The notes under the pieces are model-generated. The model worked only from the letters and a program-made list of their open reading frames with translations. It was not told where the DNA came from and searched no databases. Shown here in pieces: positions 2,145 through 30,426 of a DNA stretch of 32,000 nucleotides. The stretch's first letter is position 1, and each line of letters starts with the position of its first letter. The DNA is from an archaeon. GTDB taxonomy: Archaea > Iainarchaeota > Iainarchaeia > Iainarchaeales > CSSED10-239. The translations under genes and the position numbers were made by a program. The stretch is from assembly GCA_035357435.1 (NCBI GenBank), contig DAOPNM010000002.1:1-32000 (forward strand), read 5' to 3'.

Positions 2145-2555
2145 AAAATCCCATTTTACAAAAAAAAATAATTCCACAATTAAAAATAACCAAACAATAA
2201 TTAAAAGACACAAACAATTTATAAAAGAAATGCTAATAACTTTTTAAAATAAAAAATACATTTTGGAAAACATGAACTTAATTTTAAAAATTATATAAAT
2301 ATAGATTTCTCTAATATATGAGTTCAATTATTAAAAAAAGAAGTTACCTAATAAAATATTTAATAAAAAAGAAAAAAAATAATATAAATGTGTCCAAGAT
2401 TTAATGCTTTGAATGAAAAAGATATTTTTTTCTAAAAATAAAACTTTAATTGTTAAAAGATAGGATCCGGACATTTACTCTGTTCCAAAAATAATATATC
2501 CCCACACGTCTATATATCTTTGCCTTTCAAAAATGTGTAATCGGAGTAATAGAAA

Positions 2556-4007
2556 ATGCAGAGATATTTATATTTAACAAATGCAAAATATGATGATGAA
2601 AAAAACAGAATACTTCTCTATCTATCAGACCAAGGGACATCAACCAAAACAAATTATATATATAAAGAAAAATTTAACCCCTTTTTCTTAGTTGATGCTC
2701 CTTCTGATATTATTACACAATTACTTTCTGAATTTAAAAAAGATATAAAAATAGAAACATTAACAACCACCAAAACCAAACTAATTGCAAACAATTTTCA
2801 AACATTACAGAAATGTCACAAAATACTAACAAATTCATTAAACAAAAACATTTTGTTGATTGAACCAGAAAGACAATATCTTATAGAAAAAAATTGGAGT
2901 TATTATGATGTTTTCTTAAATGTTAGTGATAAAATAAAACATATAAAAAACCAAACAAAAATACATGACATTATCAAAGAAACAACAAATGAATTAGAAG
3001 AAATTAAGAAAATTAAAATAATCCCTGAACTTACAAGAAAATTAATTATAAGCAATATTTTAAAAATAAAACCAGAACAGAACATACAAAATGATGAAAT
3101 ATTAAATATATTATTCGAAAACTATTTTTTTAAAAAAAACATAGTTCTAAAAAACAAATCAAAAATACAATTTGAACAAAAAAAAATTAATTTAAAAAAC
3201 ACAATGAATTTAGATTTTTCAAACATTTGGCCACATCTTTTAAAAAAAGAATTTTATAATATAGGATATGAAACTATTGATTGTGACTGTTGCAAACCAA
3301 AAAACATATTTGATACAAACACACTTGCATCTTCTTTTGTAGAAGTAGAATTTATATACAATGGATTTTATTTTATATCAAAAGATAAAGAATGGGCATG
3401 GGAATACCACAACACTAAAGAGAACAAAGATAAAAGACAAAACTATAAATTACAAAATAAATTAAAAGAATATCCAATTGGGCCGTTCTTTAAAGGACAA
3501 AAAGAAAAAATACCATTAATAGATGCTTTGGGTTTAGTGGAGAATAATAACATAATTCTTACAAATGGAGAACATGATCTTCATTGGTTTTGTAAAAAAC
3601 AAGAATCTTTTGTTTCTGAAATTATAAAAGAAATTGAAGAAAAATTAAAAATAATTGAAGAATCTATAAATCTTAGCACTTATATAAACTATTCAAAAGG
3701 TATGAATTTACAATTAGAAAACAATTTAAATTATTTACAATATCTTACAGAATATTCTATATTAAACAATTTATTAGAAGAAATACCTAAATTTATGACA
3801 CACACAAATACAAAATTTTATGATCCCTTAATATCAAAAAGTATAAAAGACATAAAACAACAAACATTTATAAAAATAGAGGGAGAAAACAACAGATTAA
3901 TAGAAAATAAGGAAAATGTATTAGTTAGAGAAAAAACAATATTAATAAAAATAAACAACTATTTCCCAAAAATGAATTTGCCAATACCTAAATTAATTAC
4001 ACAATAA
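2556..4007 (+). CDS. Hypothetical protein, probable degenerate and shortened family-B DNA polymerase homolog
   Basis: Intact 483-codon ORF with GGAG 9 nt upstream of the ATG. Collinear by-eye matches to archaeal PolB are given under findings. The Exo I-III, motif B and motif C regions are absent. Confidence 0.6.
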   Translation: MQRYLYLTNAKYDDEKNRILLYLSDQGTSTKTNYIYKEKFNPFFLVDAPSDIITQLLSEFKKDIKIETLTTTKTKLIANNFQTLQKCHKILTNSLNKNILLIEPERQYLIEKNWSYYDVFLNVSDKIKHIKNQTKIHDIIKETTNELEEIKKIKIIPELTRKLIISNILKIKPEQNIQNDEILNILFENYFFKKNIVLKNKSKIQFEQKKINLKNTMNLDFSNIWPHLLKKEFYNIGYETIDCDCCKPKNIFDTNTLASSFVEVEFIYNGFYFISKDKEWAWEYHNTKENKDKRQNYKLQNKLKEYPIGPFFKGQKEKIPLIDALGLVENNNIILTNGEHDLHWFCKKQESFVSEIIKEIEEKLKIIEESINLSTYINYSKGMNLQLENNLNYLQYLTEYSILNNLLEEIPKFMTHTNTKFYDPLISKSIKDIKQQTFIKIEGENNRLIENKENVLVREKTILIKINNYFPKMNLPIPKLITQ

Positions 4008-11920: not shown

Positions 11921-11921
11921 G

Positions 11922-11993
11922 CGCCCCAGGTGAGATTCGAACTCACGACCTGTCGGTTAACAGCCGACTGCTCCACCGCTGAGCTACCAGGGC
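11922..11993 (-). tRNA. tRNA-Asn (anticodon GTT), no intron, no encoded CCA
   Basis: Hand-folded cloverleaf: GCCCTGG/TA/GCTC-AGCGGTG-GAGC/A/GTCGG-CTGTTAA-CCGAC/AGGTC/GTGAG-TTCGAAT-CTCAC/CTGGGGC/G. The acceptor stem has 7 bp including two G-T wobbles. It forms a GC-rich island in AT-rich surroundings. Confidence 0.9.
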
Positions 11994-13876: not shown

Positions 13877-16117
13877 CTATTTCTTTAATTTTGTTACTTT
13901 CTTTGTAGAAATCTCTTGCTTCTTAATTTTAACTGGTTCTGCCTTTAATGTAATTTTTGGATTTTCTTGAGCTTTAATTTCACGTAGTTCATCAAGATAT
14001 GTTTGCTTCATTTCATTATATGTAAAAGAACTTATTTTCCCTTCCATATATGCTTCATCTAACTCTGCAATTTTTTTATGAATAAATTCTTTTTTATTTT
14101 TTGAATTCCCATGAATTTTAGACAATTGAATAATAAACCCAACTACTACTAAAACCAAAATTATTAAAACTATATAAAATAAAACAGATCTATCTTCTTT
14201 TGCATAAACAGACACATACTGTGTTTGCTGATTTGAATCATTATCTCCTTCTCCAGAAACATTTATATTATCACAATTAATTAAAGAATTATCAGTTATT
14301 CCTGCATCACTCACAATTGTATCTATATCTGCAGATTTATAATAACTTAAAACTTCTGTTTCCACATCATAAATATACTTAGCCATGTTTGTAAGTGTAT
14401 TTGAAACTTTTAACTCTGTTTGCCCATCTATATTATTACCAATATTTGCATAATACTCTGCAGAACTATAAAAATACATGGCATGATCGAAAAACATTTT
14501 AGACCAAACATGCTCATCATTGTTCATTTCAGAAATAGATCTTAATTTATTTTGTAAATCATTATAATTATTAAAAAAAGAATTTTCATCAAAATCAATT
14601 GCTGATTCTTCTTGTTTAGAAACAAGAATTGCATAGGCAGTAGCAGCTTCATATGTTGCAGTAACATACCAACCTTTAGACATATCTAATTTTGCTGCTA
14701 GATATCTCCTTTGAAAATCTTCTTCAGAAACATCTTCTTGAGTAAGTAACACCATCTTATTTTCTATATCTACAAGATATCTTTGAGAAACATCTTTAAA
14801 ATATGTTGATTCTACAAACTTATGTTTTGAATCTGTAATTGCAACATCTAAAAAATCATTTGCTATGTCTACCCAACCAACAGCATAAGAATAATTAATA
14901 ACTTTGTCTAATGGTTCTAATTGTGAAATAGAAAGAGGGTCTTTTAACCTATTTAAATTATTTATAGCCCAAGACAATCTTTCTTTAGCACCTATACACC
15001 ATTCCATTTGATCTAAAGAACATTGTTTTGTTCTCAATTCTGTATCATTAATCATCTTCTCTAAATCATTTAATTTTTTAGAAAATATAACAGATTGAGA
15101 ATCTAAAATAGAAGGATTATCTAAAATCTCTTGTATTGCAGTAATATTTACATTTACTAAAAAACAATAATTTGCAGCAGAATATAAATAATTATTATTT
15201 GAACTTTGTTTTGCAAGATCTAACTCATCTTCTGCATAATCTAAAATTGTTAAAACACCTGGTAAAATTCCACTATTCTTAAGATCTTCTGAAATTCTAT
15301 TTAAATCGTTTTGCATAGCTTTTACTTTTTGTTCTGCATCTGGAATATATTTGTCAACTAAATTACGCATAGGTGTAATAGCTACAGAATATTCTATTTT
15401 TGGTGGAATATATTCCACCTTATTCTCAGGTTTAGAAACATTTATATCAATAGAATTTAAATCTTTAGAAACATAATCAAACATTTCTTCAAGAGTTGAA
15501 ACTTCTACAATTTTCATACCCCATGTTTCATAAGCATAATTTATTAAATCTATTTTTTTTACAGTCCCTTCCTCTGAAATAACTTGCTCTCTATTTCCAA
15601 CAGGAATCATAAACAATTTAATACCCGTTTCTGCTGCTTTTTTAGCTTTATAATAAATACCACCAACATCTCCAACTTTGCCATCTAATGAAACAGTACC
15701 AGTAACACTTACATCTTGTGGAAAATTAATATCCTCAAACATTGTTGCAATCAATAAAGCCATTGCAGCACCAGCCGAAGGACCATCAATAGAATATGCA
15801 GAGGATTCAATATTTATAATAAAATCATATTTACTTTGATCTTCCTTTGCAAGAGACGATGCTACTGCAACAGAATGTTTTACTGATTCTTGAGTATTTG
15901 TTCCAACAAGAGAAGAAATAGAAGGAAGAATCATTCCTTTTCCAGGAATTCTTGCAGGTTCAATTATTATTTCTAGATTTGCTTGTAATGCTGTATTATC
16001 TGAATTAACTGCATAAATTTTCATGTGCCCTTCTGGAATAAGTGCAAAAGTATTTGGAAGGATTAATAATATTAAAAAAAATACAAATAATTTATTTTTA
16101 TTGCTCATAAAAACCAT
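13877..16117 (-). CDS. Secreted, membrane-anchored S16 (Lon-type) serine protease with a large helical ectodomain and a SHOCT-like C-terminal tail
   Basis: Signal peptide KLFVFFLILLILPNTFA. Lon proteolytic-domain motifs IDGPSAGAAMALLIATM and GTVSLDGKVGDVGGIYYKAKKAAETG. About 450 aa of unassigned sequence follow, then a TM segment (VLFYIVLIILVLVVVGFII), then IAELDEAYMEGKISSFTYNEMKQTYLDEL. Confidence 0.8.
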   Translation of the reverse strand: MVFMSNKNKLFVFFLILLILPNTFALIPEGHMKIYAVNSDNTALQANLEIIIEPARIPGKGMILPSISSLVGTNTQESVKHSVAVASSLAKEDQSKYDFIINIESSAYSIDGPSAGAAMALLIATMFEDINFPQDVSVTGTVSLDGKVGDVGGIYYKAKKAAETGIKLFMIPVGNREQVISEEGTVKKIDLINYAYETWGMKIVEVSTLEEMFDYVSKDLNSIDINVSKPENKVEYIPPKIEYSVAITPMRNLVDKYIPDAEQKVKAMQNDLNRISEDLKNSGILPGVLTILDYAEDELDLAKQSSNNNYLYSAANYCFLVNVNITAIQEILDNPSILDSQSVIFSKKLNDLEKMINDTELRTKQCSLDQMEWCIGAKERLSWAINNLNRLKDPLSISQLEPLDKVINYSYAVGWVDIANDFLDVAITDSKHKFVESTYFKDVSQRYLVDIENKMVLLTQEDVSEEDFQRRYLAAKLDMSKGWYVTATYEAATAYAILVSKQEESAIDFDENSFFNNYNDLQNKLRSISEMNNDEHVWSKMFFDHAMYFYSSAEYYANIGNNIDGQTELKVSNTLTNMAKYIYDVETEVLSYYKSADIDTIVSDAGITDNSLINCDNINVSGEGDNDSNQQTQYVSVYAKEDRSVLFYIVLIILVLVVVGFIIQLSKIHGNSKNKKEFIHKKIAELDEAYMEGKISSFTYNEMKQTYLDELREIKAQENPKITLKAEPVKIKKQEISTKKVTKLKK

Positions 16118-21511: not shown

Positions 21512-21627
21512 TGTTAGCGACCATAGAGACAAGGAAACACCTGGTCCCATTTCGAACCCAGAAGTTAAGCTTGCCTTCGGTTTTGTATGCTCTTAGAAAT
21601 CTAGGTGCAACAAAGTAGTTGCTAACA
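21512..21627 (+). rRNA. rrf: 5S ribosomal RNA (stand-alone, not linked to 16S/23S in this window)
   Basis: GCGACCATAGAGACAAGGAAACACCTGGTCCCATTTCGAACCCAGAAGTTAAGC matches the universal 5S core. A 10-bp terminal helix pairs 21512-21521 with 21618-21627, including one G-T pair. The ends are uncertain by a few nt. Confidence 0.85.
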
Positions 21628-28400: not shown

Positions 28401-29642
28401 CTATTTCATCAAAGCATTATATTCTTTCTCAGAAATATTTGCACCTAAAAACTTAATTTCTTCATAATTAAGTCTAAAATAATAAATTAAATCTGCTGTA
28501 TATTTATTTGATCTTGCAATAATCTCTAAAAAAGGAAGATGGTATTTCTGAATTATGTGCTTGGAACAATAATACCTCTCTCTTACTTTATCTACAACTT
28601 TTGCTTTCAAATCTCTTTCCTTTTTATTTCCACTCATTGTTTTTAAATATGTTGGGAAAACAAATGGTTTATATCCTATATTTTTTTCTGGAAATTCTTT
28701 TGAATAAGCAATACCTATTGTTAAATAGTCTAAAATATATTTTAAAAGAGTCCAATTTTGAGAATAAATTCTACCTAAATAAATATCTGCTTTACTTAAC
28801 TTTTGTAATGCATTATTAAGATTATGTGGTTCTTTATACTGCCTTGGTATATTCTCTTCAACCCAAGACATCAACATCTTCCAATCAACATCCATTGAAT
28901 CAACTACACTTTTTGTTTCATAAAAATCTTTTGCATAAAAAATTTTTTGCATAATCTTAAAGATGTCTTCATCTTTTTGTCTTTCACCTAAATTTTCTAC
29001 ATCTTCTAATGTTATTTTTTTAGATAGACTGAGAGTGCCTAAATCAATCAACAATGCCCTAACATCATTTTTTGCTTTCTCAACCAAAAGGTCAATTGCA
29101 GGCAAATCATAATCTATATCTTCTTTATCACAAACTTCTTTTGCAAACTTCTTTAATAACAACTTGTTTGGAAGACTAAACTTAACTTGTTCACACTTAA
29201 TAAACAAAGATTGTAACTTTTTATCTGCATAAGGATTATTTGCAATCAAAATAATAGGTTGTTTTGTTTTATCTAAAATCTTACTTAATTCTGATAAACA
29301 ACCATAATCTTCAGATCCTCTTTTATCCGAAATTGCATCAATCTCATCTATAATAATTACTCTTGTTTTCCCAAACAATGTCTTAGATGTACTTGCAATC
29401 AGAATAAGCTGAGCCATCATATCTTTACCTCTATCATCAGATGCATCTGTAAAATACATTTCCCAGCCCATTTCTTTAGAAAGAAGAGTTGCAGCCAATG
29501 TTTTACCTATACCTGGTTCACCAAAAATAAATAATGGTTTCTTATGATCTTTTGCCCACATTTTTATTTGTAAAATCTCTTTTTTATGGCCTATTATTTC
29601 ATCCAAACTTTTTGGAGTATACTTGTTTATAAAATTTTGCAT
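28401..29642 (-). CDS. rfcL: Replication factor C large subunit
   Basis: KYTPKSLDEIIGHKK..., Walker A GEPGIGKT, TDASDDRG (the large-subunit NASD-type motif) and Walker B IIIDEID. Confidence 0.9.
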   Translation of the reverse strand: MQNFINKYTPKSLDEIIGHKKEILQIKMWAKDHKKPLFIFGEPGIGKTLAATLLSKEMGWEMYFTDASDDRGKDMMAQLILIASTSKTLFGKTRVIIIDEIDAISDKRGSEDYGCLSELSKILDKTKQPIILIANNPYADKKLQSLFIKCEQVKFSLPNKLLLKKFAKEVCDKEDIDYDLPAIDLLVEKAKNDVRALLIDLGTLSLSKKITLEDVENLGERQKDEDIFKIMQKIFYAKDFYETKSVVDSMDVDWKMLMSWVEENIPRQYKEPHNLNNALQKLSKADIYLGRIYSQNWTLLKYILDYLTIGIAYSKEFPEKNIGYKPFVFPTYLKTMSGNKKERDLKAKVVDKVRERYYCSKHIIQKYHLPFLEIIARSNKYTADLIYYFRLNYEEIKFLGANISEKEYNALMK

Positions 29643-29706
29643 ATATGTTATTTATGTGTAACAATATTTAAAAATAAATCATTAGAATAATAATATGTGA
29701 TAACAC

Positions 29707-30426
29707 ATGATAACTGTAAAACAAACAAACAACTTCAAAAAAAGTTTAGAAATAATTTCTTCTCTTATTCAAGAAACAAACATTAGATTTAAAGAAGATG
29801 GAATATACATACAAGCAATAGATAAAACACAAGTATTACTGATTGACTTCAAAATGTCTAAATCTGTTTTTGAAACATATAATGTAGAACCAAACTATAT
29901 TGGTGTAAATTTACTAGAAATCTATAATATAATTGCAAGATCTTTTGAAAAAGACAAAATACAAATAGATCTAAAAGAAAATTTTTTAGAAATACAACTA
30001 AATGGGCAAATACAGAGAAAATTTAATATTTCATATATTGAAACAGGAAAAGATGTTGTATCTATTCCTGATATAAAATTTGATGTTATATTTAACATAA
30101 ATGCACATTTATTAAAAGAAATACTAAAAGATGCAAGTTTAATTGGAAATACAATAATATTCAAAATACAAAATCAAAAATTAATAATAGAAACACAAGG
30201 CGAAAAAGGGAAAATAGAAACAACAATACCTAAAATTAAAATAAAATCAAAGAAAGATAGTGTTATTTCTAAATATTCATTAACATATTTAAAAAATATA
30301 ACAAAATCAATGGATGGAGAAAACGATATTGTCATAAAACTCAGTGAAGATTCACCATTATTATTTGAATATAATTTGTCAACAGATATAAAAATAGAAC
30401 TATATTTAAGTTCAATGTTAATTTAG
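29707..30426 (+). CDS. pcn: DNA polymerase sliding clamp PCNA
   Basis: 239 aa. FKKSLEIISSLIQETNIRFKEDGIYIQAIDKTQVLLIDFKMSKSVFETY is the typical archaeal PCNA N-terminal domain. It is divergent from rfcL. Confidence 0.9.
   Translation: MITVKQTNNFKKSLEIISSLIQETNIRFKEDGIYIQAIDKTQVLLIDFKMSKSVFETYNVEPNYIGVNLLEIYNIIARSFEKDKIQIDLKENFLEIQLNGQIQRKFNISYIETGKDVVSIPDIKFDVIFNINAHLLKEILKDASLIGNTIIFKIQNQKLIIETQGEKGKIETTIPKIKIKSKKDSVISKYSLTYLKNITKSMDGENDIVIKLSEDSPLLFEYNLSTDIKIELYLSSMLI

Follow-up and report, generated by a model that had tools for sequence, protein, structure and literature searches.

An inactivated family-B DNA polymerase derivative with a GINS-B-like insertion in Iainarchaeota

Introduction

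Inactivated modules of family-B DNA polymerases (PolBs) are central to ideas on the origin of the eukaryotic replisome, both as the essential C-terminal half of Pol epsilon, which is not catalytic, and as archaeal PolB2. PolB2, or Dpo2, is a PolB paralogue with disrupted catalytic centres that is conserved in archaea (Rogozin 2008; Makarova 2014, PMC4104785); its operon also holds arCOG07300 and an inactivated RadA, and a role in repair or in the regulation of replication has been proposed for it (PMC4104785). The C-terminal half of Pol epsilon (Pol2, DUF1744) is an inactivated PolB module that serves as a structural element of the replisome, connecting via Dpb2 to the Psf1 B-domain of GINS. 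To our knowledge, the known inactivated PolB modules are all full-size and recognisable by sequence. Here we describe a 483-amino-acid (aa) protein encoded at 2556..4007 on the forward strand of the first 32,000 nucleotides (nt) of contig DAOPNM010000002.1, a stretch from an Iainarchaeota archaeon that we call the window, and show that it belongs to a family of PolB derivatives that has lost catalytic residues and whole domains and gained a domain within the palm.

Set beside archaeal PolB1 and PolB3 (1s5j, 5mdn and the Pfu, KOD and Tgo enzymes), the family shares the fold and a collinear N-terminal domain, palm and fingers. It keeps remnants of the RYLI box, of motif A (LDFxxxxP), of HNxxxxT and of the C...C hairpin, as well as the (R/K)(W/F)Y that follows motif B and the palm helix. 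In contrast to these enzymes, it lacks the exonuclease, the thumb and the conserved catalytic residues of motifs A, B and C, carries a 90-aa insertion with four invariant cysteines, and goes undetected by the Pfam PolB models. PolB2, unlike the family, keeps the exonuclease and thumb and can be recognised by sequence as a PolB, whereas the family is about 60% of PolB length and has a GINS-B-like insertion. The likeness to the Pol epsilon half is one of concept only, as that module is fused to an active polymerase and a zinc-finger C-terminal domain and binds a GINS B-domain rather than containing one. We met no account of such a family in the literature searched, and a 2020 PolB census built on sequence searches with polymerase domains makes no mention of Iainarchaeota or Diapherotrites in its main text (PMC7544198). 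The family is thus a previously undescribed inactivated PolB derivative of unprecedented architecture. We are highly confident in this structural description, which comprises the PolB fold, the domains lost and gained, the missing catalytic residues, the four invariant cysteines, the selection on the gene and its restriction to one phylum.

A family-B polymerase fold

On its own, the window protein had no match in Pfam, NCBIfam or the PDB sequences. The Pfam models DNA_pol_B (PF00136) and DNA_pol_B_exo1 (PF03104) did not match it at E up to 10, nor any of 52 family members at E up to 0.1, and a profile of its close homologues found nothing among PDB sequences. An AlphaFold2 (AF2) model built with 34 homologues scored a predicted local distance difference test (pLDDT) of 88.6 and a predicted template modelling score (pTM) of 0.87, and a Foldseek search of the PDB with this model returned 100 matches at E up to 0.001, of which the best 50 are all family-B polymerases. 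The strongest of these is S. solfataricus PolB1 (1s5j; E 1.4e-7), and behind it come enzymes of Pyrobaculum calidifontis and Thermococcales as well as E. coli Pol II; TM-scores against PolBs, normalised to the query, are 0.42-0.52. DNA polymerases were also returned from a viral structure library searched with the same model.

Profile comparisons pointed in the same direction. Aligned with hhalign to a profile of 12 PolBs, the 52-sequence family alignment (A2, on which the family profile and all conservation counts rest) gave Prob 93.2%, E 2.9e-7 and a score of 66.2, against scores of 11.8-18.4 (E 0.33-0.94) for reversed or column-shuffled PolB profiles. Because these controls score far lower, the similarity is not a product of composition. 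The 12 sequences comprise five Thermococcales PolBs and seven from archaeal or bacterial plasmid records, the latter added for diversity because a database search with Pyrococcus furiosus polymerase (Pfu Pol) listed Thermococcales only; the Pfu Pol sequence used was checked to be identical to PDB 3a2f_A. When the A2 profile was run with hmmsearch against 177,635 PDB sequences, the two best matches were PolBs, 5mdn (E 0.03) and KOD (E 0.12), each aligned in two collinear blocks. In the opposite direction, a PolB hidden Markov model (HMM) searched against all open reading frames (ORFs) of about 450 kb of loci ranked family members next after the PolBs used to build it.

A sequence-only reading of the window had proposed PolB homology from five by-eye matches to Pfu Pol. 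That proposal is borne out by the predicted structure and by profile-profile alignment, although not by the Pfam models. From the aligned profiles and the model together, we conclude that the protein is a derivative of a family-B DNA polymerase with collinear N-terminal domain, palm and fingers. Scans against PADLOC and PHROGs returned BrxF (E 0.01) and SIR2 (E 0.063), both of which we judged to be noise.

Domain map

The ORF list gives an intact frame of 483 aa plus stop with an ATG start and, as the sequence-only reading had it, a good Shine-Dalgarno sequence. We mapped domains from three independently run hhalign sub-alignments, the full alignment and the AF2 secondary structure, using Pfu numbering for the PolB side (q denotes window-protein residues). 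The features are as follows.

2543..2546, + strand: Shine-Dalgarno-like GGAG, read off the sequence, 9 nt 5' of the ATG.
2556..4007, + strand: complete ORF, an inactivated PolB derivative without exonuclease and without thumb (ORF list, homologues, AF2 with Foldseek, hhalign).
2556..2909, + strand: PolB N-terminal domain, aa 1-118 (hhalign q15-118 = Pfu 11-130, E 0.017 alone).
2910..3026, + strand: short hairpin/helix linker, aa 119-157, between collinear hhalign blocks (AF2 secondary structure).
3027..3281, + strand: remainder of the N-terminal domain and beginning of the palm, aa 158-242 (hhalign; hmmsearch against 5mdn and KOD).
3282..3293, + strand: invariant CxCC (C243, C245, C246) at the base of the insertion, in 52/52 divergent members; one cysteine aligns near Pfu C429.
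3303..3581, + strand: insertion, aa 250-342, without PolB counterpart (no PolB match for q250-345); predicted compact alpha/beta domain.
3441..3566, + strand: GINS-B-like core of the insertion, aa ~296-337 (PIGPFFKGQKEKIPLIDALGL...) (Foldseek, Pfam, hhalign).
3591..3593, + strand: invariant C346, the fourth cysteine, which closes the insertion, in 52/52 members; aligns to Pfu C443 in HKFCKD.
3594..3800, + strand: fingers, aa 347-415, two long antiparallel helices (AF2 helices 352-380 and 391-415, 29 + 25 residues).
3801..4004, + strand: C-terminal palm, aa 416-483, with NTKFY, palm helix, motif C hairpin, helix and last strand.
3891..3929, + strand: degenerate motif C hairpin, aa ~446-458 (AF2 strands E449-451 and E454-457).

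Over the N-terminal domain the PolB HMM matches aa 14-88 of family members, P42 is invariant, and R106, W114, Y116 and D118 are near-invariant. The alignment of this domain reproduces two of the by-eye matches, KFNPFFLV with TFRPYIYAL and EPERQYLIEKNW with IPFAKRYLIDKGL. The linker of about 39 aa stands in place of the entire 3'-5' exonuclease domain (Pfu 131-324), whose loss had been read correctly. In the block that follows, q162-251 corresponds to Pfu 330-434 in the hhalign sub-run and q158-250 to Pfu 325-438 in the full alignment. This block contains LSNILK..P, LFENYFF, the motif A remnant LDFSNIWP (aa 219-226) and YNIGYET; the last two pair with LDFRALYPS and HNVSPDT of Pfu, so that the by-eye match in the motif A region was recovered by both hhalign and hmmsearch.

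Beyond the insertion, HWFC346KK of the window protein aligns to HKFC443KD of Pfu, and q343-445 aligns to Pfu 440-529 (E 0.0014 alone), covering the fingers and the palm helix that follows them (helix 424-442), with NTKFY paired to Pfu KARWY. The remaining residues, aa 446-483, correspond to about Pfu 535-578 and comprise the motif C hairpin, a helix and the last strand; against P. calidifontis PolB (5mdn), the C-terminal block of the A2 profile spans chain residues 493-581. The protein ends opposite about Pfu 578 or 5mdn 581, and PolBs run on for about 190 aa. Because it stops about 190 residues before the PolB end, at the boundary of palm and thumb, we conclude that the thumb is absent.

Loss of catalytic residues

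Residue counts over the 52-sequence alignment show what has become of the catalytic motifs. At motif A, the strand and the F/P pattern are retained, with the Tyr changed to Trp or Leu; the catalytic position, D220, is Asp in 39 of the 52 members (75%), Asn in six, Glu in two and other residues in the rest. On the second finger helix, columns 401-413 hold no conserved K, N, Y or G of motif B, and at motif C, columns 445-458 are variable, contain indels and have no conserved acidic residue; in the hmmsearch alignment to 5mdn, the PolB YGDTDS falls opposite this variable, non-acidic stretch. An exonuclease DxE motif was not found in the members: D118 is present in 43/52 and its paired Glu is missing. 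The loss of motifs B and C proposed in the sequence-only reading therefore stands for their residues but not for the elements that carry them, as the finger helices and the motif C hairpin are present. The positions that are invariant are P42, C243, C245, C246, R294, G309, P310 and C346, and those that come close are R106, W114, E188, N235, H285, D323 and W344. Because conserved motif residues, an exonuclease domain and a thumb are all missing, polymerase or proofreading activity is very unlikely, as judged from the sequences.

An insertion bracketed by four cysteines

Four cysteines, C243, C245, C246 and C346, are invariant in 52/52 members and bracket the insertion of about 90 aa as CxCC...C. 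Pfu Pol has two cysteines flanking a short hairpin at the same site, and C346 aligns with one of them, C443. We modelled the insertion in isolation (aa 232-352), and AF2 returned a pLDDT of 93.9. The best Foldseek match of this model was 5ghr_B, the B-domain of Gins51 (prob 0.98, target-normalised TM-score 0.72, root-mean-square deviation 2.3 A), and about 25 of the best 50 matches are GINS subunits from archaea, yeast, worm, frog and human (also 9moj). Pfam PSF2_N matched 3/52 full-length members and 5/37 isolated insertions, with a best E of 5.8e-4, and Gins51_C matched one further isolated insertion, always inside the insertion at aa ~296-337 in window numbering. With hhalign, the PIGPFFKGQKEKIPLIDALGLVENNNIILTN stretch of the insertion profile aligned to human PSF2 aa 32-62 (PSF2 sequence checked against 2e9x_B) with E 7.7e-4 to 9.2e-4, against 0.11-0.64 for controls. 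Insertion and GINS B-domain appear to have in common the motif GPF-x(6-7)-(I/V)PL-x-(D/L)A-x-x-L. These sequence and model comparisons argue that the insertion is GINS-B-domain-like and that homology is probable.

Compared with the GINS B-domains of Psf2 (PF25005) and of the Gins51 C terminus (PF22090, 5ghr_B), the insertion likewise appears to be a small alpha/beta domain, and its size and predicted fold are comparable. It differs in sitting in a polymerase palm rather than beside a GINS A-domain, in being flanked by the four cysteines, in having extra strands and helices (aa 255-300) and in scoring below the curated cut-offs throughout. Pfam scans of family members found no GINS A-domain (Sld5/GINS), and PolB palm and fingers adjoin the insertion on its two sides. 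An HMM of the B-like domain gave no further match, for instance to a true GINS, in the loci examined.

The position of the insertion also recalls the P-domain and CysX site of Pol epsilon, where motif A and the fingers are likewise separated by an extra palm domain whose base has three nearby cysteines on the N-terminal side and one on the C-terminal side. In the window protein, C243, C245 and C246 lie 23-26 residues past the motif A Asp and C346 follows the insertion, giving the same three-plus-one arrangement. CysX binds a [4Fe-4S] cluster through C665/C668/C677/C763 (PMC6582351). The family differs from the Pol epsilon case in lacking Foldseek fold similarity to the P-domain and in being catalytically dead, and metal binding by its four cysteines is putative. 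No Pol epsilon chain occurs among the best 50 Foldseek matches of the isolated insertion, and a profile of the insertion region (A3) found none in the PDB. Elsewhere in the protein, DUF1744 of the Pol epsilon half gave weak matches in the fingers/palm region of 2/52 members (E 0.018 and 0.074); in one of them, P0060, aa 421-486 correspond to DUF1744 positions 294-360 at 12.1 bits against a cut-off of 27. This similarity lies far below threshold and is at most a hint.

Distribution and selection

A word-indexed search yielded 52 homologues, nearly all of 480-490 aa and with identities of 27-56%. An exhaustive search of 1.84 billion cluster representatives extended the family to 145 clusters at 50% identity, 126 of them with E < 1e-10 and most of 430-530 aa; none of the family matches listed from that search is of PolB length. 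The organism names that members carry are all 'Candidatus Diapherotrites', 'Iainarchaeum' or 'ainarchaeum', and as far as members carry names the family is restricted to one phylum, the DPANN Iainarchaeota/Diapherotrites. Two complete genomes have the gene, archaeon GW2011_AR10 (protein AJF60663.1) and Ca. Forterrea multitransposorum (CP045477.1), and no relatives were found in the viral contigs that we scanned.

The Nei-Gojobori dN/dS ratio is 0.04 in a pair with unsaturated dS (0.61) and 0.06-0.17 in more distant pairs. The family is under strong purifying selection, and because dN/dS is 0.04-0.17 the gene is maintained and not a pseudogene. The sequence-only reading had likewise argued for a maintained, non-catalytic PolB-derived protein, and the conservation of the short form among relatives, now seen in about 145 clusters of nearly constant length, agrees with it. 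Missing from that reading were the GINS-B-like insertion, the invariant CxCC...C and the phylum-restricted distribution.

Two variants depart from the common length. In one related genome (L017, CAYXWT010000002.1, 9962-11014), an in-frame form of about 335 aa lacks aa ~205-355, which hold the motif A remnant, CxCC, the GINS-B-like insertion, C346 and the first finger helix, and retains the N-terminal domain together with the NTKFY...LPIPK part at the C terminus. A natural deletion, gene decay or an assembly error could each explain this form. Another member, P0005 (535 aa), carries an internal tandem duplication around NILFENNFY...KNKQKI, just 5' of the motif A remnant (alignment A1, columns ~226-278).

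Genomic context

For divergent members of the family (18-30% identical to the window protein), the family gene, X, directly precedes rpoK-rps17e on the same strand in 7/7 look-ups; these represent eight loci (L025-L032), one pair of them identical in protein and gene order. In most of the eight, nurA and herA lie upstream, at times with a Na/Ca exchanger gene between, and a convergent rad50 lies downstream. No Mre11 (metallophosphatase) gene was called beside rad50 in the eight loci, which is unusual for an archaeal rad50, and no RadA/RecA-type Pfam family, such as accompanies PolB2, is annotated in them. Because the nurA-herA-X-rpoK-rps17e / rad50 arrangement has been kept while X diverged to about 20% identity, it suggests, at the level of gene order, a link to DNA-end processing or fork repair.

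Close relatives of the window protein have a different neighbourhood. In the genomes of 17 related species (L001-L017), a convergent alba follows the family gene in 17/17, usually with a cysteine desulfurase gene, and the context contains no replication genes; it is uninformative on function. No alba stands at this place in the window, whose genome therefore differs from these relatives by a local rearrangement. Across both groups, the herA (DUF87) genes of L004-L009, L017 and L026 contain an intein with a LAGLIDADG domain.

In the window itself, which has a G+C content of about 25%, the gene lies between a divergent family 2 (GT2) glycosyltransferase gene on one side and a convergent Rce1-like protease gene on the other. 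The window otherwise encodes archaeal housekeeping functions, namely S27ae, S24e, Spt4, Rpo7, aIF2-gamma, S6e and aIF5B, together with PCNA, RFC, ABCE1, LonB, TBP, AglB, ScpA/B, a 5S rRNA and a tRNA-Asn. An RFC-like AAA+ clamp-loader subunit (-) and PCNA (+) form a divergent pair at 28401-30426, about 25 kb from the PolB-like gene. At 13877-16117 (-), a 746-aa ORF has a Lon_C/ChlI-like domain confined to aa 51-180 and no Pfam match over its other ~560 aa. The 5S rRNA gene (21513-21627, +) is solitary between the TBP and AglB oligosaccharyltransferase genes, and the tRNA-Asn(GTT) gene lies at 11921-11993 (-).

A candidate non-catalytic scaffold and its alternatives

As the best explanation of the whole, we lean towards a dead PolB derivative that acts as a non-catalytic scaffold with a GINS-B-like docking module. 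Such a protein would not polymerise DNA and would instead serve as a scaffold in the replisome or in repair. Its N-terminal domain, palm and fingers would form a rigid platform that may still contact template DNA, and the four cysteines would hold the inserted domain in place through a structural metal (Zn or Fe-S). How the B-like domain would dock is a more tentative matter: it may bind the type of partner that real B-domains bind, either the RecJ/Cdc45-type nuclease GAN or the N-terminal domain of DP1, the PolD small subunit (DP1N). Docking would tie the protein to the replisome, or to stalled or broken forks and DNA-end repair, in line with the herA, nurA and rad50 neighbours. In eukaryotes, the Psf1 B-domain binds Cdc45 and Dpb2. 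The Gins51 C-terminal B-domain is reported to bind GAN and DP1N (PMC9023282).

Several observations weigh against the scaffold-and-docking interpretation. The Foldseek matches to GINS are all individually non-significant (E at least 0.16), the Pfam GINS-B scores reach at most 19.1 bits (E 0.0013) against a gathering cut-off of 27 bits, the hhalign match to PSF2 with E ~8e-4 spans only 31 columns, and small alpha/beta domains can converge. Neither the window nor any of the 17 close relatives has the herA/nurA/rad50 neighbourhood, which, being confined to one phylum, may reflect inherited synteny and not a functional link. D220 is kept in 75% of members, and R294, D323, G309 and P310 are invariant or nearly so, which makes an unorthodox activity conceivable; archaeal PolB2/Dpo2, long called inactivated, has been reported to be weakly active (PMC4104785).

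Of the competing explanations, the likeliest takes the insertion as a lineage-specific palm insertion that acts like the P-domain of Pol epsilon, contacting DNA above an Fe-S base formed by the four cysteines, with its GINS likeness convergent. It shares the site between motif A and the fingers and the cysteine pattern, three close together and one about 90-100 residues on, and it would account for GINS similarity that is sub-threshold in every test. We nevertheless consider it unlikely, given the Foldseek best 50 with about 25 GINS subunits and no Pol epsilon chain, the fit of GPF...(I/V)PL.DA..L to the B-domain signature in human PSF2, and the lack of an obvious use for a processivity domain in a protein with neither thumb nor catalysis. 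There is a smaller chance that the protein is still an enzyme, with polymerase, primase-like or nuclease activity via non-canonical residues. D220 in 39/52 members, together with R294, D323, E188 and D118, all invariant or strongly conserved, would fit such an activity, and precedents exist in the weak activity of Dpo2 (PMC4104785) and in the primer-independent piPolB, which does without the first motif C Asp (PMC7544198). Set against it are a motif C hairpin of variable loop length that lacks a conserved acidic residue, the loss of the motif B Lys and Asn, the want of a thumb to hold primer-template and of exonuclease motifs, and the placing of the invariant residues in the insertion and N-terminal domain rather than in the polymerase active site.

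The remaining alternatives concern what kind of PolB remnant this is. Split PolBs are known in Methanothermobacter, and the protein ends close to the palm/thumb boundary, as would one half of a split polymerase that receives its thumb in trans from a separate gene. The catalytic residues are absent in any case, and the PolB HMM found neither a canonical PolB nor a thumb-only ORF in the ~450 kb of DPANN gene neighbourhoods that it covered, as distinct from whole genomes; we give this possibility very little weight. No more credible is the map drawn in the sequence-only reading, of a PolB minus exonuclease, fingers and motif C in which the strands past motif C and the beginning of the thumb survive. 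It rested on by-eye matches 4 and 5, matches 1-3 having proved correct. The fourth, VEVEFIYNGFYF, falls inside the insertion, where aa 250-345 have no PolB match and are GINS-B-like instead, and the fifth, HWFCKKQESFVSEII, pairs with Pfu 440-455 (HKFCKDIPGFIPSLL), where the chain enters the fingers, rather than with RRDWSEIAKE at the thumb. The fingers had been taken as deleted, whereas helices 352-380 and 391-415 with the palm helix align to Pfu 440-529; aa 343-483 as a whole align to fingers, palm helix and motif C hairpin (Pfu 440-578; 5mdn 493-581), AF2 helices of 29 and 25 residues suit fingers and not thumb, and it is the thumb that is missing from the C terminus. A decaying pseudogene, or a chance similarity arising from a 22% G+C composition, would agree with the very AT-rich sequence and the negative single-sequence searches, but is practically negligible in the face of an intact frame in >100 divergent homologues of constant length, the dN/dS of 0.04-0.17, the failure of shuffled and reversed controls and a confident AF2 model.

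The most far-reaching form of the scaffold interpretation is that Iainarchaeota hold an archaeal counterpart of the non-catalytic module of Pol epsilon: a dead PolB scaffold whose built-in GINS-B domain would plug into CMG-type machinery (GAN/RecJ-Cdc45, or PolD via DP1N) and whose four cysteines would form a metal site, possibly Fe-S, at the P-domain/CysX position. We regard this version as rather improbable.

Implications

The family indicates that a PolB can be reduced to N-terminal domain, palm and fingers, lose catalysis and gain a GINS-like domain and four cysteines, yet remain under strong selection across a phylum of reduced genomes, all while staying invisible to the Pfam and NCBIfam models used. 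It is a candidate replisome or repair adaptor in DPANN archaea and serves as a natural experiment that bears on the polymerase parts needed outside catalysis. Were the Pol epsilon-like version true, archaea would here provide the first inactive PolB that stands alone and has a domain dedicated to replisome docking, and with it an independent example, or a relative, of the step behind the architecture of eukaryotic Pol epsilon.

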